Below are positions 1,250-63,736 of a stretch of 64,000 bases of DNA, one piece after another. The position numbers and the translations under genes are program-made. Source of the stretch: Eledone cirrhosa (taxonomy: Eukaryota); assembly GCA_964016885.1 (NCBI GenBank), contig OZ024743.1, forward strand, positions 238,328,001 through 238,392,000. The letters run 5' to 3'. Each line of letters begins with the position of its first letter. Position 1 is the stretch's first letter. Under the pieces are notes generated by a model. That model saw nothing but the letters and a program-made list of their open reading frames with translations. It made no database searches and had not been told where the DNA came from.

Positions 1250-1344
<95 letters not shown>
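1250..1344. repeat. (TCTA)n microsatellite, 5' flank of the Tx1 array
   Basis: Perfect tetranucleotide run directly abutting Tx1 copy 1. Confidence 0.98.
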
Positions 1345-2308
1345 CTGACCGAGCTGCAGTCCTGGGTCAAGCAAAGACCGAGGAAAATGGGCGACTGGCA
1401 CATCGAATGTGCTCAGACGCTCACAGTCCTCTGGCAAACGGACCCGGCGATCAGTGGAGTCTGTACTTCGACATTCTATAGAGGGTTGGTCCGCAGCAAG
1501 TGCGACGACGCGGTCGGAGAAACTTTAGGCGTAGAGGAGGACGAACTGGCCAGTCTGTTCGGTATGACCTTCCGCCTGGGACCAATGGACAACTTCCCAA
1601 AGTCCCTGGCCTGGCAGTGCTACCGAGGAGCTCTACCAGTTCGAGACAAGCTCTACAGGCACGGGCTCCCGGGCAGGGACCCTTCGAAAAAGATCTGTCC
1701 GAGATGCGTGCGCGACGAGGAAACCGACCTGTGGGGCTATGTAGAACGACTATTGTCGCGGGTGGGACCAATCCAGTTGACCACCGAGTCCATTGTCATG
1801 ATCAAACCGCAACCCTCCTTCAAAAACGAGGGAGAGGCGGTTTTCCTATGTTTTATGACTATGGTGAAAGAGGTTATATGGTGGACGAGGTTAAAAGGGA
1901 TGAGGTCAGACACCTTTCTCTCCGGCGAGCAACTGATTCGTTTTTTCAAATATCATTTTGGAAGAAGAATCAGGATGGAGAGAGAGGTGCTGTACCCCAG
2001 CAAATTTTATAAAAGGTGGGTGAATGTGGCAAAGATGGCCCGAGTGGTTGGGCCTTCTCTCTATATAAGCCTGTAGGTTGAGGAAAAAGAGGAAGAGAGG
2101 AAGGGAGTACTCACTCTTGGTGCTCCTGGAGATGAGGGTTGTACATATTTTCGGGGTGTGTACAACCCTTGTGTAACGCCTCCCCCCTATTGGGGATTTC
2201 AATTGTTATTTGTTATTTTATTAATAGTTTTATTTTCATATACCTGTATGTAAACTTCCCATTTGTATTTGTCCCCTTCTTTTGTGCCCTTGTGGCTAAT
2301 AAAGAAAT

Positions 2309-2310
<2 letters not shown>
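1345..2310 (+). mobile_element. Tx1-clade non-LTR retrotransposon copy 1, 5'-truncated (ORF2 C-terminus plus 3'UTR)
   Basis: ORF 1387-2076 is homologous to the ORF2 ends of copies 2 and 3 (SLAWQCYRGALPVR, KKICPRC). It ends AATAAAGAAATTT, followed by (ATCT)n. Confidence 0.92.
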
Positions 2311-2340
<30 letters not shown>

Positions 2341-2360
2341 TTATCTATATATCTATCTAT
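2311..2360. repeat. (ATCT)n between Tx1 copies 1 and 2
   Basis: Direct reading. Confidence 0.95.
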
Positions 2361-2434
2361 AGTGCCCCTCAGGGCAAAAACATCCAAAACATCTTAAAAA
2401 AAAATTTTTTTTGCAAAACCACATTTAAAAAAAA

Positions 2435-4051
2435 ATGGCCGAAGCATCTACTTCTTTGCCAAAACAAGAAGATGGGAAGGGAAAGCCATGCCCACTTGAC
2501 CAGCAGGTAGTAGCAGACATGAACAAAGAAAGGCCAACTTCATCGCCTCAACATCTAGCTGCTGGCAAACAACTGAACACGCCTGACGTCCACAAACGTC
2601 ACAAGTATCCACACACCAAACGAGAAAGACAACAACAACAAAAATGAAAACAACTCAAACGACGAGAAACAAAACAATACAAACACCAACAACGAAAACA
2701 AAATATCTTTTGCACAAACGGCTAAATTATCAGTCACATATGTGCTTGAAGATATTTCAAAAGCCAACGAAATGCTGGAAAAAGCCAAAAAATATGTATC
2801 TTTTGGCGAAAATGGTTCTTTTTCTATAAATTCGCCTCCAGAACTAAAAAAACAGACGGAATTACGAACTGTCGTATTCCGTACAATTTCAAATAAGACA
2901 AAAAAACCAGCACAACCATCTCAAGCTGAAATTCAGTTAGTACTGAAAGAAGCGATGAAAGATATCATTTTCATACAAAAGGATAAACTCTATAGGAGTT
3001 TATCCATATTGATGAAAGACGAATTGGCGGCGAAAAAATACTCTGTGTCGCCAATTCGTTCCACACACTACACCTTCTTCCCCACCTACATGGGTAAAAA
3101 ACCCCAGAGAATATGGATAACCACCATCACCCCAAACATAAACTACTGGTGGTTACTAACCGGTTTCCTCAACTTAGACGAGGACAACCTCATTTCAATA
3201 GGGAAGGCATCCGGCGACGCGTTCAGTGGAACGAGCATCGAAGGTCTGACCCAAATAAGGCCAGAACGTATCGCCCAAATCCCTGAGAGCGTCATGCTGG
3301 ATGACCGTACCCACCTCAACATTATTGTGGAAGGTAGGCGTCCCTCCTGTTACCTCTGTGGCAATAGAGGTCACCTGAGGGCTGCCTGTCCTCAGCTCAC
3401 ACAGAAAAATACACTGCTACCAACACCAACACCACCCGAACAACAACAACAAAAACAACCACAACAACAACAACAACAAAAACCAACAACACCACCACCA
3501 CCACCACCACCACCACAACAACAACAACAACAACAAACACGTGAAAAAACAACGCAGAATACTGTCCCACACAACCCCTCCCCACCCAAAACAAATACAA
3601 AAACACACACACCGCAAACACTACCAGAAAACACACCTTTCCCACCCAACAAAGAAGACGAACCCCTTTCGTCGCAAGACGAAAAAGATCCTTCCAAACA
3701 GTAAAAAGAAAGAAGAGGAGGCACACCACAGACACACTTGTTAACATTAACCCTCCCCAAGAGAACACAAACTATATACAACCCACCCCTCCCCGTCACA
3801 CAACACTAACTGCTACACAAAAAAAGACTTTACAATATACATACATGAACACAGACAACAAAGAACTACTGAAAACAATTTCATCAAACCCTTCGGTCCA
3901 AACTGAAGGGCCTAACTTTATAACTGCTATGGGACTACCTCATTTAAAAATGATTAAAGTCCCAATGAACTTTTATAAAACATTGAAAATAAATTTCACG
4001 GAGGACGTGGGCCCCCCCCCTGCGCCAAGCCAATCAACCGCGTCCTCCTAA
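2435..4051 (+). pseudogene. Tx1 ORF1 (gag-like zinc knuckle), frameshifted
   Basis: Pieces 2435-2647, 2742-3704 and 3845-4051; CYLCGNRGHLRAAC knuckle; homologous to copy 3 ORF1 (GENG.FSINSPPE, IIVEGRRP.CYLC). Confidence 0.85.
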
Positions 4052-4236
4052 AAAATCCCCCCCCCCACACAGACACCCACTCAACCACAAACGCCCCAAC
4101 CCCACAACACACTGATGCCCCTTCACTTCCACAAAGCACCACCCCACCCAACAACCCATCTCCAACCAGCATGGAAATTGAGCGGCCCGCTTCCCAGGAC
4201 GCAGAGAGGTAAGTGCCTTTTCTCCTTACCACCAAC

Positions 4237-7200
4237 ATGGCTGTGCTAAGAGTAGGTGTCTAAATGCGCGTGGCCTGGGCTCATCTTGGAAGCAAGCAAT
4301 GCTTCTAAATGACCTCAGGTCACGATCTATAAATGTGATGGTTATCTGCGAGGCCCGGATCAGCAGCATGCGACAGCTAGCCCCCACCTTTGACGACTTT
4401 GAGATACACGCATCTCTCTGTCAGCCCGGAGGTGGGGGAGGGGTTGTCGTTCTGCTGCAAAAACATCTGGGTCTTGCCACACAGATAGTTCACTTGGACC
4501 CAGAGGGTCGACTGGTGGTGCTGGACCTTGGCAGTGGTGAAGGTGGAGCCTTTAGGCTGGTAGCCGCATATGCCCCTTTTGGGACAGAGCAGCCCGACTT
4601 TTTCCAGCGTCTGGAGTCTTTTCTAGGGACGTCACGTTCCCTGCTTTTAGTGGGGGACTGGAATGGTATCCTGGATGCACGTTGGGACTATTCAGGGGCA
4701 TGTCCCGATAGAGAGGGGTGCAACAGCCTCAAGGGGTTACTCGGCCGATTTGACCTGGCCGATAGATTTCGACTAGATTTTCTGACGGTGCCAACCTGGT
4801 CTTGGTCAAATCGCAGCGACCTTGATAGAACGCATAGACAGGGCCCCCGTTACTGGAAGCTCAACTTGCCCTTGCCGGCAAGTAGAGCTTACAGGGATCG
4901 GATTAGTACGTTAGTTAAGGAACGGTTGACTGGAGCGATCGTCAACAGCAGGTGGTGGGTATCTCTAAAGAGAGAGATTAGAGTAGTCTCGATAGAATTT
5001 AGTAAGGTTCTAGCTGCGGATAGGAATAGGAAGGAAAGGGAGCTAATAGATAGAGTAGAAAAGGCAATTAGAAGCGGCGACGTGGCCAGAGTAGTAGCGT
5101 CGAGAACGGCTTTGAGCCAGTTTTTCGACGCGAAGCACGAAGGCTGCGTTGTCCGAAGTAAAATACGTGCTCTAGGGAACGAGGGGACCAAAGCTGTTAG
5201 CTGGGCCCGCGTGACAGAGGCCAAGAGTGGAACTAAATCCACCATCCGGTCTTTGCGAGACCAGGATGGACGGGCGATCCTTGAGCCTAAGCAGATGTGT
5301 GAGGCCTTTCAAAGGCACTTTGCCCGCCTGTTCGGAAGGGGCGGGGAGCCGGTTGGGGATGTGGACTTCGGTCCATACCTCGACGGCCTGCCGCGTCTCT
5401 CGGACAGGGAGGCGAAGTCATGCGAGGAGCCGATTTCAGCCGCTGAGATGGAGGACGTGCTGAGCCAATGCGGCAAACGCAAAACCCCGGGTCTCGATGG
5501 TCTTCCATACGAATTATATCTAGCTATGCCGGACTTGTTCCCCGATCTCCTCGAGGCGGTCTACTGCAACTGGCAACAGAACGGGAGAATTCCCTGTACT
5601 GTGACCAAGGGCGTAGTCACGCTAGTGAGGAAGGACGAGAACAAGGGGGACGAAATAAGTAACTTCAGGCCCATAACACTGCTAAATACAGAGTTACAGA
5701 TTTTGGCCAAGGTGCAAGCAAAGAGGTTGGCGCTTGTCGTGGGCAACCTGGTGGGAGATGCGCAGATATGTGCTATCCCGTCCAGGTCCATCCATGACAA
5801 CATCCACCTCATGCGATACATTATAGAGAGGGTTGGGAACGAACCCGGCTTTGGTGGGGCTCTGATCAACTTGGATCAATCTAAGGCGTTCGATAGGGTC
5901 GACCATGGTTACCTGGATGCGGTGCTAGCGGCGGCAGGCTTCGGACCCGCTTTCAGGGGCTGGATCACTGCTATGCACAGCAGCCGCATCTGCTCTAGGG
6001 TCAAGGTGAACGGCTACCTCTCGGAGCCGTTTAAAATCGCGCGGTCCATCCGACAAGGGTGCCCTCTCTCCTCCCTTCTGTATGTGTTGACTCTCGAGCC
6101 ACTACTGCGGAAGTTGAAGTTGTTGCAGGGCATCCCTTTGGAACCGGGATATAGGAAAGCGGTATCGGCCTACGCCGATGACGTGACAGTATTGGTGTCG
6201 ACGGCCTCCGAAATCGGGGCGATCGGCACCTTACTGGAGGAGTACGAAAGGTTCACAGGGGCTAAGCTGAACCGGGACAAGTCGATTGGTTTGCAACTCG
6301 GCACGTGGAGGGGCAAACCGATTCCCTCCCATGGCGTCGTCGGACGCTGGATGGAGGGCCCGGTGAAGTTGCTCGGGCTCTGGTTCGGACCAGACCTCCA
6401 GGTGGATAGAACTGGGCGGAGGTTACGAACAGGGTGTTTGCACTGACCCAGAAGTGGGCCAGTTGCAAACTATCACTGAAAGGTCGGGCGGAGGTGGCGA
6501 ACACCTATATAGCGTCCGTCATCTACTACCGCCTGACCGTCGTGCCTTGCCCAAGGGAAACCCTCGCCAAGATGGAGCGCACGCTCTTCCAATTCCTTTG
6601 GAAGAGGTGGGCTCCCTTGGTGAGGAGAACCATCTGCTGTCAACACCCTTCGAAAGGAGAGCTGAGGATGCCGTGGCTAATGATGCGTAAACACGCATTA
6701 AGGCTACGGAACCTCCACGTATTCCTCACCGGTCAACCGGTGTGGGCCTCGTTTGTGAGACGAACCTTTCCCTCACTCACCGAGCTGCACTCCTGGGTCA
6801 AGCAAAGACCGAGAAAACTGGGCGCTTGGCAGACTGTGTGTGCCCAGGCGCTCACCGCCCTCTGGCAGGTGGATCCGGTTATCAGTGGAGACTCCACCGC
6901 AACATTCTATAGAGGGCTGGTACGCAGCAGGTGCGACGACGCCCTCGGAGAAGCCCTAGACATGGAGGAAGACGAACTGGCCAGCCTGTCCGGTAGGACA
7001 TTCAGCCCGGGACCTATGGACAACTTCCAGAAGTCCCTGGCCTGGCAGTGCTACCGAGGGGTTCTACCCGTTCGAGAAAAGCTCTACAGACACGGGCGCC
7101 CGGGTAGGAACACCGCCAAAAAGATCTGTCCCAGATGCGTGTGCGACGAGGAAACCGTTGCACACGCATTGGTACAGTACTCGGGCGTAGCCGATCTGTG

Positions 7201-7543
7201 GGGCTATGTCGAACAACTGCTGTCAAGGGTGGGACCGATCCGGTTGACCACTGAGTCTATTGTAATGATCAAGCCGCCTCCCCCCTTCAAAAATGAAGGA
7301 GAGGCGGTGTTTCTGTGCGTAATAGCCATGGTGAAAGAGGTTGTATGGTGGACGCGTCTGAAAGGACTGAGGTCAGGCACCTTTCTCTCTGGCCAACAAC
7401 TGGTCTGTTTCTTCCGATATCATCTCGGCAGAAGGATCAGGATAGAGAGAGAGGTGCTGCACCCCAGCCTTTTTTATGAAAGATGGGTGAAAGTGGCGAG
7501 AATGGCCCGTGTGAATGGGCCTTCTCTTTACATAAGCCTGTAG
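4237..7543 (+). pseudogene. Tx1 ORF2 (APE endonuclease, reverse transcriptase), disrupted
   Basis: LVGDWN, PGLDGLPYE, NFRPITLLN, DQSKAFDRV, RQGCPLS and YADD motifs. Frameshifts near 4260 and 6410. An in-frame deletion at about 4817 removes the SDH segment that copy 3 retains. Confidence 0.92.
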
Positions 7544-8024
7544 GTGGAAAAGAGGAAGGAACGAGGGAGCACCCCCTCCCTATGCTCCTGAGGAGAAGGG
7601 TTGCACACTTTTTTCGGGGGTGTGTGCGACCCCCCAAGGCGCCTCCTCTCTATTGAGGATTTTGTTATAAATTTTATTTTGTTATATTTTATATTTTATT
7701 TTATTTTTGTATTTTGTTATTGCCTCCTCCTTATTGAGGACGCCTTTGCATGTAAACTCCCCCCATTGTACTTGTCCCACTTTTTGATGCCCTGGTGGCA
7801 AATAAAAAGAAACATACCTATCTTGATAGAGTAAGACACGCTTCACATCGGCTCCGCTATTCCATCGGGATTTACCCTTACTATTGTAAGTACCGGATAA
7901 ATTTTTCAGTGCAACACATTTGGAACACTAACCCTGTTATTTAGGGAAACATTTTTGCATTTACCCCCTTTTTAGGGGGTAAAATAAATATCTATTTTTG
8001 CCGAAAAATTTCTTTCTTGGCAGC

Positions 8025-9850
8025 ATGGCGGAAAAGATGGCAGACATGTCTGCCATTAGCTCTGCCACGCCCCCCAAGTCTGAAGAACAAAAAATAATTA
8101 CAACAAAATTAGACAACGAAACAAACAAAGAAAATGAAAAAACAAATGTTAAGGAAAATGAGCAAACGGAAAACAAACAAACAGAAAATAATACAAATAA
8201 CAACAGGGCAACTTTCGCCCAGAAAACAAAACAATCCATTACATACACACCAATTGACCTAACTGCCGCCAGAGAAAAACTGGCCGAAGCAAAGAAACAC
8301 ATTGTTTTGGGGGAGAACGGAATGTTTTCCATTAACTCACCCCCAGAATTCAAGAAAGCGAGAACAGAGAACACAGTTCTCTTCAGAACAATCCTAAACC
8401 AAACAAGAAAGCCAGCACAGCCCAGCCAAATGGAGATAGAGCTGGTCCTAAAAGACTATATGAAGAATATTCTCTTCATACGAAAGGACCGACTCTATGG
8501 CAGCATTTCGGTCCTAACAAAAGACAAGGAAACGGCGGAGAAGCTTTCCCTAAGCCCACTCTCATCGACAACATACAGCTTCTATCCCTCCTACATGGGT
8601 AGAAGAACACAGAGAGTAAAAGTAAAAACAATGCTGCCCACAATGGACTTCTGGTGGGCTATTGCTGGCTTCATAGATATGGGCGAAGACACAATGCTGT
8701 CAATGGGGAAGGCAACTGGAGATGCGTTCCTGGGAATGGGCCTCGACATACTAGTCCAAATGCGGCCCGAAAGAATAGCACAAATCCCGGATCGCATCTG
8801 GCTGGATGACCTTACCCCAATAGACATAATTGTAGAGGGGAGAAGACCAGCATGCTATTTATGCATGGAAAGGGGACACGTTAAGGCTAACTGCCCGAAA
8901 CGTATCCCCCAAAAAGGACTATTGCCCACACCCACCACAAACAGTACACCAACACCACCCACCTCCAAAAATACACCAATACCACACACAGCAAACAAAA
9001 TACAGACACCACCAACCACAAACACAACACAAACATCACCACCACCAGCACCAAACACAAGCACGACACAAAAATCACCACCACCAACCACAACACAAAC
9101 ATCACCATCACCAACCACAAGCACGACACAAACATTACCACCACCACCACAAAACCCATTCCAAACAAATAATAAAAAAAACAGTAACAAATCTACCCCT
9201 CCCGTAAAAAAACAACAACCACACAACACGTCCCTCCCACCTAGCGCTGAAGAGTTTCCCCCAACTTCTGAAAAAGAAGGAGGAGAAGCCTTCAGACAAG
9301 TTAAAAGAAAAAAAGAAAACACACACCCAGCACACCACAAATAACCCACACACAAACGCCAACTCCAATCAAAAACACCCCACCCTCAACAAACAAAAAT
9401 AAATCTGCGCCTCCCCTCTCCGAAACATTGACAGCATCACAAAAAAAGACGTTGCAATACACATATATAAATAAAGAAAACAAAAAACTGGTTAAATTAA
9501 TAAACAATAACCCTATGGTGCAGACCGAAGGGCCAAACTTTATCTCAACAGAGAACTTCACCCATTTAAAAATGATAAAGGTCCCTCTGGACCTTTATCG
9601 TTCCTTAAAAGAACAATTTAGATGGGACGTGAGCCCCCCCTGTTTAAAACCGTTAAATCGCGTCCTCTTGAAAGATTTCCCCATAACCGCCCCTCTCCCT
9701 GACACAACTCCAAATACCCCAACCCCACCACACACAGGTACCCCCACACCACCACAAAACATCCCTCCACCCAACACACCTGATGCCATGGAAATTACAC
9801 AACCCGGAGAGGTAGGTGCTTTTCTTTCTTCACTTTCAACACCAAAATAG
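8025..9850 (+). pseudogene. Tx1 ORF1, frameshifted near 9340
   Basis: ORFs 7998-9344 and 9428-9850; CYLCMERGHVKANC knuckle; Pro/Thr-rich linker. Confidence 0.85.
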
Positions 9851-9855
9851 ATCAA

Positions 9856-12800
9856 TTGAGAGTTGGCTGTTTGAACGCGCGTGGCCTGGGCTCAGCTTGG
9901 AAGCAAGCAAAGCTTCTAAATGACCTCAGGTCACAAAGTATAGATGTGATGGTTGTTTGCGAGAGTCGGATCAGCAGCGTGAGACAGCTGGCGCCCGCCT
10001 TCGATGACTTTGAGATGCACGCATCTCTCTGTCAACCCGGAGGGGGGGGGGGGGAGAGAGTTGCTGTACTGCTGATAAACGTCTGGCTCTCGACGTACAG
10101 ATTGTTCACTCGGACCCGGGGGGTCGATTACTGGTGCTGGACGTCGGGGGCGGTGAAGGCGGGGCTTTCAGACTGGTCGGTCTTTATGCCCCCTTCGGGG
10201 CGGAAAGAGCCGACTTCTTCCAGCGTCTGGAGACTTTTCTAGGAACGTCGCGTTCCCTGCTTTTAGTGGGGGACTGGAATGGAATCCTAGATGCGCGTTG
10301 GGACTATGCAGGGGCATGTCCCGATAGAGGGGGGTGTAGCAGCCTCAAGGGGTTACTCGATCGATTCGACCTGGTCGATAGATTTCGACTAGATTGTCCA
10401 ACTGCGCCAACCTGGACCTGGGCAAACCGCAGTGGACAATCTAGATCGTACCTACATAGGTTTTTGGTTAAGAGTAAGGATAGGGACGTATTTAGTTGTC
10501 CAGAATTGATCATGGTTGGCTATTCAGATCACAAATTAGTAACCTGCGTGGTCAACCTTGATAGAACGCATAGACAGGGTCCCGGTTACTGGAAGATGAA
10601 CTTGTCCTTGCCGGCAAAGAAAGATTACAGGAACCGGATTAGTAGCTTAGTTAAGATGCGGTTGACGGGAGCGATCGTCAACAGTAGGTGGTGGGTATCT
10701 CTAAAGAGAGAGATTAGAGTAAGTTCGATAGGTTACAGTAAGGAACTAGCGGCGAATAGAAATAGGAAGGAAAGGGAGTTAACAGATAAACTAGAAGAGG
10801 TGATTAGGAGCGGAGACGTAGCCAGAGGTTAGCGGCGAGAACGGCGTTGAGCCAGTTCTTTGACGCGAAGCACGAAGGCTGCGTTGTCCGAAGTAAAATA
10901 CGTGCTTTAGGAAACGAGGGGACCAAAGCTGTTAGCTGGGCCCGCCTGACAGAAGCCAAGAGTGGGATTAAATCCACCATTCGGTCTTTGCGAGACCAGG
11001 ATGGACGGGTGATCCTTGAACCTGAGCGGATGTGCGAGACCTTTCAAAGGCACTTTGCTCGACTGTTCGGAGGGGGCGGGGGGCCGGACGGGGATGTGGA
11101 CTTCGGTCCATACCTCGACGGTCTACCGCGTCTTTCGAGCGGCGAAGCGGAGTGCTGCGAAAGGCCAATCACAGCCACTGAAATCGGGGAAGCGCTCAGC
11201 CAATGCAGCAGACGCAAATCTCCGGGTCTCGATGGTCTACCATACGAACTTTATTTAGCTATGCCGGTCTTGTTCTCCGAACTCCTCGAGGCTGTTTATT
11301 GCAACTGGCAACAGAACGGGAGAATTCCCTGTTCTGTGACCAAGGGCGTGGTCACGCTAGTGAGGAAGGACGAGAGCAAGGGGGACGACTTAAGTAACTT
11401 CAGGCCCATAACTCTGCTGAATGCAGAGTTACAGATTTTGGCCAAGGTGTTGGCGAAGAGGTTGGCGCTTGTGGTGGGTGGTTTGGTGGGAGACGCGCAG
11501 ACATGCGCTATCCCGTCCAGGTCCATTCACAACAACCTCCACCTCATGCGATACATCATAGAGAGGGTTGGCAACGAACCCGGCTTTGGTGGGGTCCTGA
11601 TCAACTTGGATCAATCTAAGGCGTTCGATAGGGTCGACCATGGTTACCTGGATGCGGTGCTAGCGGCGGCGAGCTTCGGACCCGTTTTCAGGGGCTGGAT
11701 TTCTGCCATGCACAGTGGCAACATCTACTCTAGGATTAAAGTAAACGGCTACCTCTCGGAGCCGTTTCAAATCACCCGGTCCATCAGACAGGGGTGCCCT
11801 CTCTCCTCCCTTCTGTACGTATTGACTCTCGAGCCACTGCTGCGGAAGTTGGAGTTGCTGCGGGGCATACCCCTGGAACCGGGATTGCACAAAGCGGTCT
11901 CGGCCTATGCCGACGACGTAACAGTAATGGTGGCGGACGCCTCGGAAATCGGGGCGATCGCCACCCTACTGGAGGAATACGAAAGGCTGACGGGGGCTAG
12001 GCTGAACCAGGACAAGTCAGTCGGTTTGCAACTCGGAACGTGGAGGGGCAAACCGATGCCGTTAGACGGTGTCGTCGGGCGGTGGACGGAGGGCCCGGTG
12101 AAGCTGCTCGGGGTCTGTTTCGGACCGGACCTCCAGGTGGAGAAGAATTGGGGCGAGGTGACGAGCAGGGTGTTTGCGCTGACCCAGAAGTGGGCCAAGT
12201 GCAAACTATCACTGAAAGGTCGGGCGGAGGTGACGAACGCTTACATAGCGTCCGTCATCTACTACCGCCTGACCGTCGTGCCTTGCCCCAAGAAAAAGCT
12301 CACCATCATGGAACGCATGCTTTTCCAGTTCCTCTGGAAGAAGCGGCCTCCCATGGTGAGGAGATCCATCTGCTGCCAGCACCCTTCGAAAGGAGGGCTG
12401 GGTATGCCGTGGCTGTTGATGCGTAGGCACGCATTGAGGCTACGGCATCTACAGGTATTCCTCAACGGTCAGCCGGTGTGGGCCCCGTTTGTGAGGCGAG
12501 CCTTCCCACAGCTCGTCTCGCTCACCGAACTGCAATCCTGGGTGAAGCAAAGACCGAGAAAACTGGGCAACTGGCATACCGAGTGTGCCCAGGCGCTCAC
12601 GGCTATCTGGCAAGCGGACCCGACTATCAGTGGAGAATCCACCTCGACATTCTATAGAGGGTTGGTGGCTAGCAAGGGCGACGACACCCTTGGAGAGTCG
12701 CTAGGCATGGAGGAGGACGAACTGGCCAGCCTGTTCGGTAGAACTTTCGGCCCGGGACCCATGGACAACTTCCAGAGGTCCCTAGCCTGGCAGTGTTACC

Positions 12801-13288
12801 GGGGGGCTCTGCCCGTTCGAGAAAAGCTCTACAGACACGGGCGCCCGGGCAGGGATCCCGCGAAAAAGATCTGTCCCAGATGCGTGCGCGACGAGGAAAC
12901 CGTTGCGCATGCACTGGTACACTGCCCGGGCGTTGCCGATCTGTAGGGCTACGTCGAACGACTGCTGTCGCGTGTGGCGCCGATTCGATTAACCGCCGAG
13001 TCTGTGGTGAACATCAAGCCGCCTCCTCCCTTCAGAAATGAAGCAGAGGCGGTCTTTCTGTGCGTAATAGCCATGATAAAAGAGGTTGTGTGGTGGACGC
13101 GCCTGAAAGGTCTGAGGTCGGGTGACTTTCTCTCCGGCCATCACCTGGTTTACTTATTCCGATACCACGTCGGAAGAAGGATCAGGATGGAGAGAGAAGT
13201 GCTTGGCCCCAGACAGTTTTATGAAAGGTGGGTGAAAGAAGCGAGAATGGCCCGTGTAAATGGGCCTTCTCTCTACATTGTTCTGTAG
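9856..13288 (+). pseudogene. Tx1 ORF2 (APE, RT, CCHC), disrupted
   Basis: CLNARGL, GDWN, YSDH, YADD and CPRC..ETVAHALVHC motifs. Frameshifts near 10050-10080 and 10830. TGG>TAG stop at 12944. Confidence 0.93.
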
Positions 13289-13520
13289 GTGAAGAAGTGA
13301 AGAGGAAAGAGGGAGCGCCTCCTCTCTGGGCTTCCTCCGCGAAAAGAGTTGCACACTTTTCGGGGGTATGTGCAATCCCCAACACGCCCCCTCCCTTTTG
13401 AGGACTTTTTATTGTTATATTATTATTGTTATTCCTTTTTCTTTACTCGATTTATGTAAACTCCCCCACTGTGTAAATGTCCCCTTCTTTTGTGCCCTCG
13501 TGGCAAATAAATAGAAATTT

Positions 13521-13527
13521 ATCTATC

Positions 13528-13558
<31 letters not shown>

Positions 13559-13560
13559 CT
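13521..13560. repeat. (ATCT)n, 3' flank of the Tx1 array
   Basis: Direct reading. Confidence 0.95.
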
Positions 13561-15063
13561 ATATATGTGTGTTTGCCCATCTCTTTTGGAAACAAAAAAT
13601 ATTCTCAGAGAATTAAATAACCAACTGATTATATATATATATGATAACTGGCACTTCTTCACAGGAGACGCGCATCTCTTCAACAAATTCACTTCTATCG
13701 TGAACCACTGCCAGCTGCAGGTTGTTGGCCAGTTTGATGACTGAACAGGCTTTGTGTAGGTCACCTTTTCTAGACGCTTCCCATGTGAGCAGTGCGTCCC
13801 TAAAAAGTACTGCTAAGATGCTCAAGACTCTGCCAAAGCATGTTGCTGTTCAGGTTAACAGCGCAGCGACGTTAGGATATAACTCGAGCCGCCCATGTGT
13901 ATATTTGTGACTACGTGCTGCTAACTGGTCGCGTCTGCACACTTTGCTACTCCTCCACCGCTGTGGGACTTGTGAAGAAATATCTGCACGTAAAGATGGC
14001 AATGCTACGTGCTTGTGCTTACACATATAGCACCCACTCTATACTCGTAGTTATGTGTCCAGTGACACGCTTAGGCAAGATAACAAGTCGGGTGGTCGGA
14101 GACTAAACCGGGTCCCCCACCAGACCCTGGTCTATCGAGGAGGGTAATTGGAAACCTAGCAACACAAAATCAAGAGCTGTCAAAGGGCGGATGCGCGCCA
14201 CAGAGTCAACGGTCATCCATTCCAACTATGGGTTAAATGGCCTCAACATTACTGTTAATTTTAGGTTTAAACAATACATATAAAATATATATCGATAATG
14301 TTTCTCAGTAAAAAGCTCAATAAACCTCTGTTCAAAGCATCAATAATATAATATATTTGTAAACGATATACGAGGATATATTAATTGGGAAACAAAGTAG
14401 TATATATATATATATATATAAAAGTTTTAATATAGATGAGATTTTACAGGACTAGAACTGATTCATTCTTTAGAAATCATCAGGAATCTGGCTTTCCAAA
14501 ATAAATGTTGTGGTATTTATATCTTTTCAGGTGGTAGGAGAGGGTGGGGAGTGGGATGGGTGGAGGTCATTGGTTGAAAGAAAAGGGAATTCATTAAAAG
14601 TTAATTCTTTAAGGCTATAATTTATATTTAGAGTGACAAAGGCAGAGAGAAGTACAGATAAACAAGTACAGATTGGGTGCCACTCCTTATTTTTAAGTTT
14701 CTCTTAAGCTAACAATGCCTATATTTCAGGTATCTATAAGATGGTTGGGGTCGGTCATGGTTAATGGATTTAAAGAAAAGGGAAATTCTTTAAAAGCTAA
14801 TTCTTTAAATCTCTACTTAGAGTGACAAAGACCAAGAGAATTCTATAAACCAGTTCAAAATATTGGGTGCCTATCATATCATTATTGTTATGTTTCTCTT
14901 AAGCTATATTCCAGGTGTCAAAAGAGACATTCACACACACACATATATATATATATATATAAATATACACATATACAAACATATCCAAACACATCTACAG
15001 AAATACCCATATATACACATATACAAAATACATAAATACACATACACAAATATATATATAATG

Positions 15064-20643: not shown

Positions 20644-23490
20644 CTTTGAATAACTTTGAAATGTTTTGGCCAGTATTGGCCCAGGCCATGTCTAACTTAA
20701 TAGCACCACCTGGCGAAGTCTTTCAATTCAGGATTTGGTCACCATGGCCCATTCGAGAAGAGAATTACTGTTTGCGGAGACATATCCGGGTGTGGGTGGT
20801 TTGTCCGGGATTACTTGGAGGAATTTGTCCAAAGACTTCTTGAATTTTGTGTGGTCAGTTTCTGTTTTGACGTGTCCTGGTGTGATGTTGAAGAGAGCAG
20901 GGCCGATTGAGGTGAAATAATTGTGCCGTATTGTTGTTATGAGTTGCGATTTAGATTTTTGAATGGGACGGATAGCACGGGGCCCAAGCCTTGGGTGTAT
21001 CTTGAAGGCGATGCCAACATCATTTGGGCAGTGATGATGGAACATTTTCCACATCATGCAGATAATATAACGCTCACGGCGACGTTGGAGTGAGTAAAGT
21101 TTCAGGTTTTCTAATCGACCCCAGTAGTCAAGGTCTGACATGCCATCTATCTTTTTCGTGATTGCCCTTTGAGGAGCTTCAAGTGTCATGATACTTTGTT
21201 TCGTGTGGGGAGACCACAGTGGACAACAGTATTCAAGGTGTGGTCGGGCGAAAGTAGAGAAGAGAAGGATAATGGTGCGGGAATCTCTCGACTGGAAGGT
21301 TCTGAGGATCCAGGAACACATTCTGCGGGCCATGTCAACTTTGCTGCTTATATGCGTGGTCCAGCTTATATTGCTGTCCACGGTTACTCCCAAGTCTCTG
21401 ATGTTGTTAGATGCCACGAGAGTTTCCCCGGAGGGAAGGGAGTACGGGAGTTTCAGAGCATCCTCTTTTCCAAAGTGGATCAGTTCAAATTTGTCTTCGT
21501 TCAGTAACATGTTCTTTTCTGCCCATTGGGTAACAGCCAGTAGGTCTGACTGAAGGCTTATCCGGTCATCCACGCTATTGATGACCTTTTGGAGCTTGGA
21601 ATCATCAGCGAAAATTTTAATGTTGCTGTGTTTGATGATGTCAGTGATGTCATTAATATAGATGATGAAGAGAAGTGGGCCCGACACAGTGCCTTGTGGG
21701 ACCCCACTACTGACTTTGGCTGGGCTTGATTTGACTCCCTCAACTACAACATGTTGGGTTCTGTTTGACAGGAAGCTCTTGATCCACTGCAGCAGCTTTC
21801 CAGTGACACCAATATTGGACAGCTTTCTCAGTAGAATGTTATGATCAACCCTGTCAAAGGCCTTGCTGAAATCAAGGTAGATAACATCAGTGTTGGAACC
21901 CTCTCCCAAGGCTCTCAAAATGTCATCAAAGTGATGCAGTAGCTGCGTCAGGCAATCCCTTCCATTACGGAATCCATGCTGGTTGGAGTTCAGCATATTG
22001 TTACTCTCAAGGAAGTGGGTCATTCGCGATCTCACCACTCGCTCAAATACCTTAATGATATGAGAGGTGAGTGAGATTGGACGGTAATTCACGGCAAGGG
22101 ATTTGTTTCCCTTTTTGAAAACTGGGACAACAGACTGGGATAGAAGGTTTTCTGGCACATATCCAGCATCCAGTGAGTTCCGCCACAGATTGGCAAGAGG
22201 AGATGCAAGTTGGTGTTGACACGCCTTCAAGACACAAGCCGGGAACCTATCGGGACCTACTGCTGAATTATGCTTGATTTCCTTTATTGCCGCCAGGACA
22301 TCAGGGGCGCCAAACGTTATGTCCGATAAGGTGTAATGGGGAGTAACATCGCCGATACAGCCCAGATCGGCCATATCAGGATTGCTGAAAACAGAGCAGT
22401 ATTGTTTCTGCAGTATCTCACCCATGGTTTTAGCATTGTCTTGAAGAGTGCCATTTTCATCAATTAGAGGGCCAACAGTAGAGCCAGTGATTTTGTGTTT
22501 TTTTGCAAATGAAAAGAACACTTTGGGATTGAGTTTGATCTTCTCAATGGCCCAGGCCTCTTCAGCTCTTCTCTGATTGTTGATGAGGGACATTATGTTG
22601 TTTTGGAGGTTATGTTTTTTAATCTCTAGTGATGAAATGGCAGTCAAGTTGATGTGTTGCTGCTGACAGTATTTCAGCTTGTTGATTTTTTTGTTCGTTC
22701 TCTTAATTTTTCTGATGAGCGTTTTTCTATTTCTAGGGATTCTGCTCTTAGATTTGTTTATAGTTCTTAATGGGGTGTGTTTAGCACATATGTTTGTAAC
22801 AGTGTCCACAAATGTCTGCCAGGACTTTTTGATGTTAGTGGGTGTATGAGTGTGCGTGAAGGACCAGTCGACATGTGCAAGATCATGACTGATCGCTTCC
22901 CAGTTTGCATTGTGGAAATCCATAGCGTCAAACGGATGGACAGGAGAGATGACATTGGGTTTGTATATTGGACGGTGGAATCTCAGATCACAGAGAACCA
23001 TGTCATGATCAGAGAGTAGAGTTTTCTCCACTGCAATATTGTGGATATTGTCAGTGTGATTGCTGAAAATTAAGTCTAGGACGTTTTTGTGGCACCTCGT
23101 TGGTTCGAGCACCAGTTGGGATAGGAAGAAATCATCCATGAAGTCAAGAAGCGATTCCACAGCTTCCCTGTCAGAGGTTGAGGCAGAAGAACCTGGTGGC
23201 AGGCTGTTTGTGGACCAGTCAACTCCGGGGAGGTTGAAGTCCCCCATCATTAAGATGTTGTCAGGGTGACACTCTTGGATGAAACACTTTATGCTGTTGA
23301 GGCATTCCTTGAAGCATGGTACAGGCGTTTGGGGTGGCCTATAGAGCCCAACTACTAATAGGTTGTTGGTTTGACTGAATACAGTGACTGCTTCACAGTA
23401 TCCATTAGTGAATATGTTCATAGCCTCTGTTGAGAAAGAATTATGGACATAAATGGCAGTTCCGCCCTTTCTTCTGCCAGCGCGATCAGC
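20641..23490 (-). mobile_element. CR1-group LINE, 5'-truncated within the APE domain, embedded in (TA)n
   Basis: Uninterrupted APE-RT frame; short 3'UTR ending in (TTCAAAGTTA)2. Confidence 0.9.
20728..23490 (-). CDS. LINE ORF2 (APE endonuclease plus RT), N-truncated, frame open
   Basis: [54 protein letters not shown] and [10 protein letters not shown] motifs. The N-terminal MYIYI of the track ORF is microsatellite. Confidence 0.88.
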
Positions 23491-23546
23491 ACATATATAT
23501 ATATACATAAATATATATATATACATATATATTTATATATATATAC

Positions 23547-23984: not shown

Positions 23985-25500
23985 GCTACACATTTTATCT
24001 CCAACCTGTATAGGTTGGCCGCTGGTGTAAGAGGGTGTTTGTTGCTGCTGCCCTTAGGCTTCCCTCGTGCCTTGCTGTGGGCTCATCCGGGATCCTTGAT
24101 AACAAGGTGTCGAGATGTTTCTTGAAGGCATCCACCTCCACGCCATGCAGCTTGTTGAAGAGTTGAGGGCCCTTGAATCCCAGGTTATTGTAATACCTGC
24201 TCCTTATTCTAGATGTGGAAGACGGGACCTTTGGCACCACACAGTGACGTCCTGTTCGACGGTTGGTCCATCTCCCACTGCCAAAGTTTGGTGCTAGTCC
24301 TTCCAGGTTTTCCACATGTAGATCACTGCGTATCTCTCCCGTCTTCGTTCCAAGGAATAGAGGTTCAGTTTTTTTAGCCTCTCCCAGTAGCTTGTCTCCT
24401 TCATCGAGGCAATCCTCTTGGTGTAGCTTCGCTGGATTGTGTCAAGCTCCGTGGTTAGACTGACACTATGTGGTGACCACAACTGGGAGCAGTAGTCCAG
24501 GCGGCTTAGGACAAATTTCCTCCATAGTGTCAACATGGTGTCTCGATCTCTTGTCCGGAAAGTCCTCAAGATCCAGCCAGCGAGTCGTCTGCACATTCTC
24601 GCCACTTTCATGATGTGTGAAGAAAAAGATGCATCATCGCTCATGTCTATGCCCAGGTCTCGTATCGATTTAGACACGAGGATATCGGTCCCTCCTGGTC
24701 CTGTGTAGTTGTGTTGTACTATATTTGTGTTTGCAGGTTTGTTTGGAGGTTTGTATTGTAGGGCTTGGAATTTGCCAGCATTAAACTGCACGTTGTTTTC
24801 TTCCTCCCATTTGTATATGGCATCCAGATCCTGCTTAAAAAGGGCAGCGTCAGCCGAGTTTTTGATTGCCTGTGCTACATTAGTGTCATCAGCATAGCTA
24901 GTGAGGTATATTGCTGTATGTACTACAGAGGGCATATCTGAGAGAGCCACCAAAAATATAGTGGTCCCAGGACTGTCCCTGGGGCACCCCACTTGTTATT
25001 GGTGTTTCCTTTGAGAGTGCCCCATTTGCTGCGACTGCCTGGCTTCTGTCCTTTAGGAAGTCATGCAGCCTACTTTTCCAGTTATGCCGAGTCCGTGTAG
25101 TTTGTGACATATCATTCCGTGGTCGACCTTGTCAAAGGCCTTCGAAAAGTCAAGATATATCACGTCCACATGTGAGCTGTCTAGTAGTTGTTTCAGTGCC
25201 CAGTCGTAATGATGTAGCAGCTGTGTAAGGCAGCTTCTTCCTGGGCGGAAGCCATGTTGCGTGCTAGTCAGGCGGTCATTTTCCTCGAGGAAAGTGATCA
25301 GTTTCTTTCTGACGACTCGCTCCATGACCTTACTGATATGCGACGTCAGGGAGACTGGCCTATAGTTTTTGGCCTCCGCTCTGCTACCTCCTTTATGGAT
25401 AGGGCATATTGTGCCTTCTTTCAGCTCCCTGGGTAGTACACCGCTAGCCAAGTAGCTTCTGAAGAGCATCTACAGTGGAGTTGCTAAGGCCCGCTTACAT
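23985..25500 (-). pseudogene. Second CR1-group LINE RT fragment, frameshifted
   Basis: [45 protein letters not shown] and YSLERRRERY spread over several frames. Confidence 0.9.
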
Positions 25501-57709: not shown

Positions 57710-58950
57710 TTATAGCCCTAGTCTACCCCCCGGGTCATTATGGGGTTTGAGGGCGAGGTAAGTCCTACGCAATCTATGTTTATATGCAGTAACCAGTTCA
57801 TCTTTCTTGTTTAGGAGTTGGTCCGTCAAAAACAGCATTTGTAAAGTTTCCTCCGAGTATAAATTGCACGGACGGCGTCCTCCCGTGTAAGAGTTGGCTC
57901 TGGACAGTAATCTCCAAGTGAGATCATAGGTGATGTTGTTGTCCTTGAGGTCCCATATGTGGCCCGAAAGTGTAGTGGCGTGACGCCGGGCCGGGTTTCG
58001 GAAGGTATGTCTATGTTGGTATAGCCGGGTCTTGAAGTCACATGCGGTTAGTCCTATATAAGCTTTGTTGGAGGTGTCCGTCCTCACGTTGCACTGGTAG
58101 ATCACATTACGGTCTCTGCATCTGTTGTCGAGGGGGAAAATGGATCGATCAGGACAGTTGCACCTCCTGGTCGGCTCTCCACTGCTATTTAGGTTATTTC
58201 TTCAATCGGGGTTGAGTTTTTTGTTAGAGGAGACGATGTTTTGTGTGAAGTTTGGTGTAGTGCTGTAAGACAGTTTGATGGTATTTTTGTTAATTATGTT
58301 GTGGTAGCGGTGTTGTAATGGGAAGTGTTTTTCAATGAGCCTAAAGAATATTTTCCCGATGGGAGTTGTCACCTCTGCGTTGTGGGGAGGATTGAACCAT
58401 GTTACATTGCGTGAGCGGCGGTGTCGCCTGCTGGTTCCGCTAATGGGAGCTGGACAGTAGGATATTTCCTCCCGGAAACCACTCCGCTTGAGGGCCTGGT
58501 TGTAATAAGGCGCATGTTCATCGAATATCCGCTCATTAACTGACAAATGGGATATGCGGAGGGAGATGTTTTTGACCAGGTTGTTGGTGATGTTCCTAGG
58601 ATGGTTTGATCGGCGGTGGATGTAGTGCAGGTTGTCATTAGGTTTCCTGTATGGGTAGTACAGGTCGTTTTCGAGGTCGAGGGTAACGTCCAAGAAGTTT
58701 ACTCGGGTCAGGGACGTTTGTAGGGTTATTTTAAATCCCCAGTCGCGGAAGAAGCTGATTAATTGTTTCCGGACCCGATCTGTACTACTGTGGTTGTACC
58801 CTTTAAGGGTAAGGAGCCCATCATCACGGTACAATCCACCACCGAATGCAGGACACATCTCGGTGAGTTTGGCTATAAGGAATAATCCTATAAGATCTGT
58901 GACCTCCGCCGAATCCGTAGCGCCCATGCTGACGTCGAAGGGTCTTACTG
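57710..58950 (-). pseudogene. PLE RT plus GIY-YIG endonuclease, one in-frame TGA at 58202
   Basis: FDVSMGATDSAEVTDLIGL, GLYRDDGL, VNFLDVTLDL, SNHP, WFNPP, CNC..C, VIYQC..YIGLT and LLNKKDEL motifs. ORFs 58202-58927 and 57710-58105 share a frame. Confidence 0.88.
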
Positions 58951-58980
58951 GTTCATATATATATATATATATATATATAT

Positions 58981-59327
58981 GATAATAAGGGCGCTGCGGA
59001 GTTGCAAATGGGTTACATATGAAAAAAGTTTGTCCTTCATCAGTGATCTTCCAACCATCATAGGCATTTCATCGCTTTAAAGACCATATACCTCAGGTTG
59101 GTGCGAGCAACGGCTAAAAAAGTCGTTGGGACACGTAAATAAAGGGGACGCGAGGGTAAACAATCAAAATGGTGAAGCAACAGAGTTTTGTTTGTTTACC
59201 CTCGCGTCCCCTTTATTTACGTGTCCCAACGACGTTTTTTAGCCGTTGCTCGCACCAACCGGAGGTATATGGTCTTTAAAGCGATGAAATGCCTATGATG
59301 GTTGGAAGATCACTGATGAAGGACAAA

Positions 59328-61219: not shown

Positions 61220-63400
61220 AGAAGTGTTTAGTCGGGGTCCGTATTTGTTAATGAAGTAAGATTCCTTGCTGATGCGCTGGGTGTGGGTGGCATTATCTTT
61301 AAATTTGTAGAGGGGAAAGATTCTGAAGTTGGGATGATTTGGGGCGGCACAGGTATCAATGTGTTCACTCAGTGGTATTTTCCGATGCACATGTGAAATT
61401 GTGTTTTACTATAAAACGTTGTCCATCTTTGAAATAGAATTCCGAACCCTCTATTAGGTTGATGCAAATGCCACAGTTGGGTCTATCGCATTTTTTTACT
61501 GTGGGTTTCGTTGTTGTGGTTGGCAGTACTTTGGCATGGGTTAAGATGTTTTTCATTGACTTGGATTGTCTTTTGCTCTTTATGATATCGTGTGTTCGTA
61601 GAATTTGATTCATTCTATGGTCCTTTTTCAATACAGGGATGTTCTGGAGGATGGTGTCAAAGGCCTTATTGTTGAGGGGGTTGTGTGTGGAGATGTATGG
61701 AAGAGCTTTTAGTTTTGGTTGATTTACTTTAAGGTGTCTAAGGTCCTGGGTACTAAGTTTTAGGGCACGTTGGATTCCATTGTCAATTAGTGATGCAGGG
61801 CAGTCCCTGCCTATGAGTGTGTCCTTTAGTTCTTGTAGCCGTAAGTAGCAGATGTTTTTATTGGAGACTATAGTACAGATTCTCTTGGCTAAGTTGTAGG
61901 GAATATTAATTTTAACGTGTCTAGGGTGGCAAGAGTTGAAGGGGAGGTATTGCTTGGAGTCTGTGGGCTTGTAGTATATGTCTGTTTCTATTTTTTTGTT
62001 ATGGATCTTAATGAGGATCTCGAGGAAGGGGAGTTGTTGATGGCTATATTCCATCGTGAAGTTAATATTTGTGTTGAGCCCATTTATAAGGGTGTGAAAT
62101 TCTTTAAGTTTTTCGATGTTTTCGTGCCAAAGGATGAAGCAGTCATCTAGATATCGCTTCCAGTTCCTTTCAATGTGTAAGTGGAGGGTGTTTCCAAATT
62201 TGTTTAGGACTTTAGTGTAGAGGGTGATTTCCAGGTATCCCATGACTAGGTTGGCATAAGTAGGGGCTGTTTTCGTTCCCATAGCGGTCCCAGATTTCTG
62301 CCTGTAGGGTTTGTTATTGAAAACGAAGTAATTGTTCTCCAAGATAAATTTGAGTCCCTCTATCACGAATTCTTTTTTGATGCGTTGTGGGAGTTCATTG
62401 TGGAAATTATCCAGCCAGAATTGGATAGCTTCTATTCCTAGGTTGTGGGGGATGTTGGAGTATAGGTTGACTACATCGAACGTCACTAGTAGGGTTTGTT
62501 CAGAAAGTGGCATATTAGGGAGGTGATTGAGCATATCTAGGTCGTCCCTTATATAGCTTTTGATGTGCTTGAGGAAGGGTTTGAGAAGGGTATCAATGCA
62601 GTTGCTAAGACGGTGCGTTTCGCAAGCGGAGCCTGCTATTATAGGTCTTAATTTGAGATCATTGGGTGAGCGGACATTGATGACTATGTCTGTGGCTTCC
62701 TTGCATGCCTTACTGATTGATTCGCTTTTATGTACTTTAGGGATACCGTAGAAAAGGCTGGATTTACTTGTGAAGTCTGTGATGAAGCTGAATTCCTTGT
62801 TAGTGAGTCCTTCTTTGTATTGGTTGATTAGAGTTTTTAGGTTTCTCATAATTTTCTGTTGATTGTAGTGTTCAGCCTTTTCGTAGTATGTTTCGTTTTC
62901 CAAAGTGGAGAGCGCTAAGTTGATATAGAATTCTGTCTCCATTAGGACTACTGTACTCCCTTTATCAGCCTCTTTAATTGTAATGGTTCTGTCGGTTTTT
63001 AATCTATTTAATTCTTCCCATTCTTTCTTGTTGAGGTTTGGCTTGTGTTTTTGTCTGTGCAAGTGTTGGTAAGGGAAGTTTGTGATGTGTTCACAGAATT
63101 CGTCCAGAATTTTATTTCTACCTTTTGAAGGGGTGTAATTGCTTCTATTTCTGGCTAATGATTCATCCTCATTGTACTGGTCGAATAGTTGTTCATTAAG
63201 TCGTAACTTTCTACAGAAGTCTGTGATGTCTTCCTTCATTTCATAGTAGTTAGGACGTAGTGGGGTCGGTGTGAATTTAAGACCTTTGGAGAGTAAGTTG
63301 ATAAGGTTGGGTGTTGGTTCTGCACTAGTAAGATTGATAATTTTTATTACTATCGGTTTCTCCTCCCTGTCTTGTGTTATTTTGTTTGCCTGTATCTGTG
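61220..63400 (-). pseudogene. Penelope-like element ORF (Neptune-like) with RT frame open and GIY-YIG core deleted
   Basis: INLT..LLSKGLKFTPTP upstream of the track start; ADKGS, FYGIPKVHK, LRPII, FDVVNLYSNI, GTAMGT, RYLDD and CDRPNCGIC motifs; jumps from FTCASEN to EHIDTC..ESYFINKYGPRLN at about 61375. Confidence 0.9.
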
Positions 63401-63736
63401 TGCTGTGTCTAAAAAATGGTTGGGGTAGAGGGGTTGTCTGCTGATGTTAAGTGGTCTCCTGTGTTTGTTATATTCCTTGTTGTTGTAAAATGTGGTTCGG
63501 GTTGGTGGTTGTAGATTGAATGGGGTGTTCCTGTACTGCGAGTATGGGTGTGTGTTTCTATGTGCCATGTTGTATTGTGGTGTTATAAGTGGCCTACGTT
63601 GCTGGTTGTATCATGTGGTGTGGGTTTGTTGTGTATTGTGGAAGTGAGAGTTGAGAAAATGGTAATTACCTTGCTGTCCCCTTGAAGCGGGGAAGTTGTT
63701 GCATCTATCATGGCGGTGGTATCTTTTCCCTATGTT

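Follow-up and report, generated by a model that had tools for sequence, protein, structure and literature searches.

Retrotransposons without long terminal repeats (non-LTR) that target microsatellites include Waldo and Mino of the R1 clade and Dong of the R4 clade. The available portion of PMC3812793 lists ACAY (Waldo), AC (Mino), TC, TTC and TAA (Dong) as targeted microsatellites and has no ATCT/GATA among them; an excerpt of PMC4640811 adds (TG)n, targeted by a family with a restriction-like endonuclease (RLE). For the Tx1 clade, the excerpts of PMC4494074 and PMC3812793 describe Kibi ((TC)n) and Koshi ((TTC)n) from teleost fish, and the former places the crocodilian Tx1 group 2 families (Tx1-1/5/6_Crp, Tx1-1_Gav, Tx1-2/3/5/8_AMi) in (TTCC)n or (TTTC)n. 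Here we describe three dead long interspersed nuclear element (LINE) copies that lie head-to-tail, all on the + strand, within one TCTA/GATA repeat of a 64-kb stretch of a 3.0-Gb genome (G000:C4:238328001-238392000; the whole stretch is referred to as the window, and positions are those of the window). A young, Tx1-like lineage of the L1 group sits in (ATCT)n/(GATA)n in one orientation; we consider it probable that this is because its endonuclease nicks the GATA strand, with the nick priming reverse transcription, and that the leftover repeat is reused.

Like Kibi and Koshi, these elements are APE-type LINEs with two open reading frames (ORFs) and sequence-specific insertion into a microsatellite, but the target unit is ATCT/GATA and kinship with them is putative. 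With crocodilian Tx1 group 2, as far as the excerpt of PMC4494074 goes, they share a Tx1-like anatomy, residence in a tetranucleotide repeat and the existence of several related families with a common target, whereas the crocodilian targets are pure pyrimidine on one strand and ATCT is mixed. The (ATCT)n target differs from the units of all these Tx1 families, namely (TC)n, (TTC)n, (TTCC)n and (TTTC)n. Waldo, Mino and Dong also combine a non-LTR lifestyle with microsatellite targeting, Waldo on a tetranucleotide, but they use other repeat units than ATCT and belong to other clades. In Xenopus Tx1L, a Tx1-type APE was shown to nick its target specifically, and the downstream letters 5'-AGTT resemble the AGAT of the putative nick discussed below; its target, in contrast, is the DNA transposon Tx1D and not a simple repeat (PMC1950540, in part). 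Two cephalopod repeat surveys count L1-Tx1 families and, in the portions available, name no target (PMC13282606, PMC8967140). We found no description of an ATCT/GATA-targeting LINE in the literature searched, a search whose scope did not extend to Repbase, Dfam, the 2004 Kojima and Fujiwara paper or Fig. 3 and the supplements of PMC4494074, which may list one. ATCT/GATA is likely a new target for a known class of repeat-seeking LINEs.

Copies 1, 2 and 3 of the window represent three separate families (A, B and C), and a fourth family, D, has its last 40 nt in common with C; the lineage comprises at least four families. Exact counts over the whole genome placed TATCT-T before 557 of 568 family-C 5' ends and NN-TATCT after 721 of 762 3' ends of families C and D, the latter figure pooling both families and not being a family-C copy number. 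Repeat flanks therefore account for 95-98% of the ends in families C/D, where the Kojima 2015 rule for target-specific Tx1 families asks for one sequence type in >20% of flanks (PMC4494074, excerpt). The proportion of 568 family-C 5' ends to at most 762 3' ends (family D included) also indicates a full-length share that is unusually high for an L1-group element.

At close range, the 5' flank ended in ATCT in all of 50 sampled full-length family-C copies, in a single fixed phase, and the perfect (ATCT)n stretch that abutted the element there measured 7-77 nt. We then scored 76 further loci, at which 65 junctions were resolved, for an upstream (ATCT)n stretch of at least 8 nt lying no more than 25 nt away. 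All 22 full-length copies carried the repeat, as did 31 of the 43 resolved copies that are 5'-truncated, compared to none of the 65 on the opposite strand and a background of 433/132,920 (0.33%) in random DNA. The sequence-only reading of this locus had proposed such a scoring of flanks, with a repeat found only at the 3' end and random 5' flanks in most copies as the adverse outcome; run genome-wide, this outcome did not occur. Its claim of a (TCTA/GATA)n-specific lineage whose 3' junction keeps a target for the next insertion held for the specificity, and had to be amended in that both junctions keep the target and that more than one family is involved.

Target duplications of 9-20 nt with at least three letters outside the repeat phase were identified at 10 of the 65 insertions, while 300 shuffled pairings averaged 1.2 and never exceeded 5. 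Because these duplications carry non-repeat letters, the repeat must pre-exist the insertion. Their first letter coincides with the TATCT that comes after GAAA-NN or lies no more than 4 nt from it, and at two loci (L155, 19 nt; L210, 20 nt) they extend 12 and 15 letters into unique DNA, identifying the TATCT after the element as target. The dinucleotide in front of it ('TT' in copies 1 and 3) is typical of the family (TT, TC, CA, TA, CT and GT across families) and lies outside the repeat. For the array itself, a contig of a related organism aligns over 503-1264, into the left tract, with 78 differences over ~730 letters (~10%). Since the three copies are only 0.9-3.6% from their kin, this sequence comparison suggests that the tract likely predates them.

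Within the window, the left part of the target microsatellite is a (TCTA)23 tract (1250..1341, +; called as (TCTA)23.8 at 1250-1344). It is followed by copy 1 (1342..2309, +), a 51-nt (TATC)n spacer interrupted by TATT and TATA (2310..2360, +), copy 2 (2361..7814, +), the 9-nt target remnant TACCTATCT that separates copies 2 and 3 (7815..7823, +), copy 3 (7824..13519, +) and the right part of the microsatellite, a (TATC)n tract with one TATT interruption (13520..13561, +; called as (TATC)11.8 at 13520-13566). Runs of at least three TCTA/TAGA units occur only five times in the 64 kb, four of them at the array. The shared orientation of three copies after (TCTA)n had been recognized in the sequence-only reading, and so had the termini: GAAATTT followed by (ATCT)n ends copy 1 (2304-2310) and copy 3 (13514-13520), and copy 2 ends GAAA-CA-TACCTATCT (7809-7823). 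The 9-nt remnant is likely a duplication of TATCTATCT with one change. A TATT interruption is common to the tracts at 2310-2360 and 13520-13561 and could be the old duplication of copy 2, which is suggestive only; such interruptions are also present in 7 of 76 3' flanks.

Copy 1 (family A) consists of the last ~970 nt of an element, namely the ORF2 C-terminus, the 3' untranslated region (UTR) and a AATAAAGAAA-TT end, with a 36-nt deletion at 1723. Copy 2 (family B) lacks ~140 nt of the 5'UTR and is hence not full length, as 27 of 29 relatives extend to a start near TGGGATGGACAC; it is joined to the tract via TATA microhomology and ends in AAAAAGAAA-CA. Its ORF1 begins at 2436 and contains a putative zinc knuckle, and its ORF2 (~4238-7543) encodes APE, reverse transcriptase (RT) and zinc finger. 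A 120-nt deletion at 4819 takes out the catalytic end of the endonuclease, and frameshifts are located at 4255 and 6407. Copy 3 (family C) is full length, from TGATAGAG to AATAAATAGAAA-TT, with ORF1 at ~8025-9850 and ORF2 at ~9847-13288, frameshifts at 9308, 10074 and 10828, a stop at 12944 and a catalytic D of the endonuclease that reads H. The family-C start, GATAGA, is an inverted copy of the target, so that TCTATC-T-T-GATAGA spans the 5' junction (7818-7830); families B and D, unlike C, start with GGATGG-like words. In four sampled copies (L156, L179, L185, L186), the body is of C type but the 5' end is of D type, which could reflect a chimeric subfamily or a 5'UTR swap.

All three copies are broken, and their lesions are private to each. 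Identity between them is 69% in the N-terminal part of ORF1, 85% in APE, 88% in RT and 79-85% in the C-terminal part of ORF2, in line with the wide divergence reported from sequence alone. Each has far closer kin elsewhere in the genome: over the same ~750 nt, the nearest sampled relative differs by 3.6% from copy 1, by 3.3% from copy 2 and by 0.9-1.3% from copy 3. On this molecular evidence we date copy 3 as younger than copies 1 and 2, i.e., as inserted last. Among 20 further family-C copies, mean divergence was 1.7% and both ORFs were open in three.

Stacking is not confined to the window. Of 30 copies, 14 had a kindred element in the same direction within 400 nt on the upstream side and 18 had one on the downstream side, compared to one and none for the opposite direction and to 5 of 200 random 400-nt windows. 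Spacers in other stacked pairs measure 9-77 nt. Family-C starts also follow each other at 5.7-6.5 kb in G000:C2:33306414-33317979 and 38738438-38750661. Two copies at a distance of 5.8 kb (L025 and L026) match without a single difference for 3270 nt, which implies that some arrays grow by tandem duplication. Tiny 3'-end-only pieces (~9-25 nt, ending AAAGAAA-NN) were observed inside tracts in the flanks of L013, L050 and L237 and in an (ATT)n region (L275-L276), the piece at L013 being placed between two copies of a ~28-nt stretch. These short pieces are likely abortive insertions.

By analogy with L1/Tx1 biochemistry, we propose that the endonuclease nicks the GATA strand. The nick likely falls at the T^A step in 5'-GAT^AGAT-3', a position that the data do not fix to the base; a nick there would agree with the T^A step of L1 and with the AGTT after the Tx1L nick. 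The freed end would then prime reverse transcription, with the RNA presumably carrying at its end a short read-through stretch of AUCU letters that base-pairs with the primer, and a second nick, 9-20 nt further along, would complete the insertion. As repeat is left on both sides of each insertion, tracts are likely reused, giving rise to arrays.

Some results weigh against this proposal. Twelve of the 43 truncated copies failed the upstream repeat test, no junction could be resolved at 11 of the 76 loci and four of 40 sampled regions (L168-L170, L173) were left out. Only 10 of the 65 duplications are informative, and some flank pairs disagree (L105, L112). An empty allele was not observed; the contig of the related organism stops 13 nt past 1264, too early to show an empty or filled site, and the right flank, being repeat-rich as well, was uninformative in this comparison. 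The family A and B samples were the best BLAST matches to the window copies and not random draws. Lastly, about 4 of 15 background tracts, judged by eye, already adjoin a kindred 3' end, so that the stacking does not demonstrate an extra attraction to occupied tracts.

The strongest competing explanation, which we nevertheless judge unlikely, is that insertion into pre-existing (ATCT)n is decided mostly by base-pairing: a loose endonuclease would nick T^A steps, and only primers matching the read-through AUCU tail of the RNA would be extended. In its favor, none of 302 3' ends (duplicates included) had an A8 run within 25 nt, in spite of an AATAAA ~10 nt upstream, and the dinucleotide before TATCT is family-typical. 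Some targets match by only 5-7 letters (L210, L118, L155), and in 2 of the 10 informative cases (L198, L202) four extra letters precede the duplication on the 3' side, an observation that slippage after insertion can also yield. The endonucleases of the lineage and of its (ATT)n-resident relatives, described below, moreover show few differences within the minor-groove loop. Against it stand the very high specificity of 95-98% and the in vitro sequence specificity of the Tx1L endonuclease itself (PMC1950540, excerpt).

Repeat tails made by the element are a feature of L2, CR1 and RTE LINEs. If the repeat were such a tail added upon random insertion, 5' repeats would have to stem from the tails of previous copies or from a head encoded by the element. 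An older copy does precede about half of the 5' repeats (14/30), and the one fixed 5' phase (50/50) would allow a few head letters to be element-borne. Yet 16 of the first 30 full-length family-C copies carry the upstream repeat without a kindred element within 400 nt. Truncated copies, which cannot carry an element-encoded head, are informative in this respect: 20 of the 32 that lack an upstream neighbor have upstream (ATCT)n, with truncation points at many internal positions. Together with duplications that run from TATCT into unique DNA, this largely refutes an element-made repeat, which we regard as very improbable.

No more credible is unspecific insertion with copies that merely survive or accumulate near microsatellites, as was proposed for Drosophila Waldo-A/B (PMC3812793, in part). 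Simple repeats are very abundant in the genome, which would suit this explanation. Survival, in contrast, cannot yield a single repeat unit, strand and phase with duplications beginning at TATCT, and family C is only 1.7% diverged. Further, 200 kb of arbitrary genome DNA contained 443 (AT)n tracts vs. 16 (AGAT)n tracts (~27-fold), and a choice of any microsatellite is thus not what the data reflect. That the array arose from a single insertion by tandem duplication or unequal crossing-over, a process that the L025/L026 pair shows to exist in the lineage, has practically no probability left and is refuted at this locus by copies only 69-88% alike, their placement in three different clades (copy 1 via its family A) and their closer dispersed kin, as the sequence-only reading had anticipated in denying a recent tandem duplication.

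The same genome harbors (ATT)n-resident relatives (L271-L276, two regions), with 53-68% ORF2 protein identity over longer stretches. In the two regions in which flanks were scored, these elements end in AATAAAGAAA-NN like the ATCT families and continue directly into (ATT)n. In a quick IQ-TREE analysis of RT (16 element rows and 46 of 50 homologues, midpoint root, branch support by the Shimodaira-Hasegawa-like approximate likelihood ratio test (SH-aLRT) only), the 11 ATCT rows and 5 ATT rows fell into distinct groups (SH-aLRT 100 and 99) within a common clade. At one site of the endonuclease minor-groove loop (as in L1), Ser is found in 9 of 11 ATCT rows vs. Ile in 4 of 4 ATT rows with data; of the remaining ATCT rows, one has Cys, and the alignment of copy 2 breaks at its deletion just after Ser. 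Because there is only one target switch, this residue is only a lead. We tentatively raise the possibility, which we hold to be doubtful, that the two sister lineages switched between (ATT)n and (ATCT)n with the target carried partly by an RNA that, lacking poly(A), would end in letters of its own landing repeat, so that only a small endonuclease change (e.g., Ser vs. Ile) was needed.

The elements belong to the L1 group of non-LTR retrotransposons, as seen from their ORF2 domains, target duplications and frequent 5' truncation. ORF2 has the layout APE-RT-zinc finger, with a Pfam match to RVT_1 (E 2e-24) and matches to Exo_endo_phos and zf-RVT under the curated cut-off. Human L1 ORF2p is the closest relative with a solved structure; the whole endonuclease-RT part aligns to it at E 1e-48, vs. 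1e-21 for R2, among matches that included no CR1, Jockey or R1 ORF2. A gag-like CCHC zinc knuckle in ORF1 is a feature of the Tx1 clade. Copy 2 ORF1 matches zf-CCHC with E 0.002, below the cut-off, and copy 3 gave no such match although CYLC..GH....C is visible. We use the label Tx1-like provisionally, on the basis of anatomy and of general knowledge of the clade; no named Tx1 reference (Tx1L, Keno, Kibi, Koshi) was present among the 53 homologues or the cluster members.

Family-C ORF2 lacks the ATG that family B has at the corresponding place; an ATA overlaps the ORF1 stop (ATAG) in each of 20 copies (L251-L270; 9846-9850 in the window), which suggests non-AUG or coupled initiation in the young family. 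Between ORF1 and ORF2, families B and C both retain a GAGAG|GTRRGT that resembles a splice donor, with a pyrimidine run after it (4204-4214 and 9807-9817). Elsewhere in the window, an open endonuclease-RT frame of 934 aa from another LINE clade, together with RT fragments, is located at 20728-23532 (-) and 23995-25469 (-), and two RT frames with GIY-YIG-like ends, which we take to be Penelope-like, at 57710-59068 (-) and 61365-63446 (-).

With ~570 near-full-length family-C copies at this low divergence and ~1.6% of the 200 kb of arbitrary genome DNA made up by the lineage, it is both young and abundant. ATCT/GATA lengthens the short list of microsatellites that serve APE-type LINEs as targets, and in genomes of this kind multi-kb insertions would readily affect GATA markers. 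What sets target choice is called poorly understood in the available part of PMC3812793. The (ATCT)n and (ATT)n lineages of one genome form a matched pair for asking whether the endonuclease or the RNA tail sets the target. If the proposed switch is true, target choice carried by the RNA would propagate via the flank, providing a natural and testable case of site-specific retrotransposons changing their targets.

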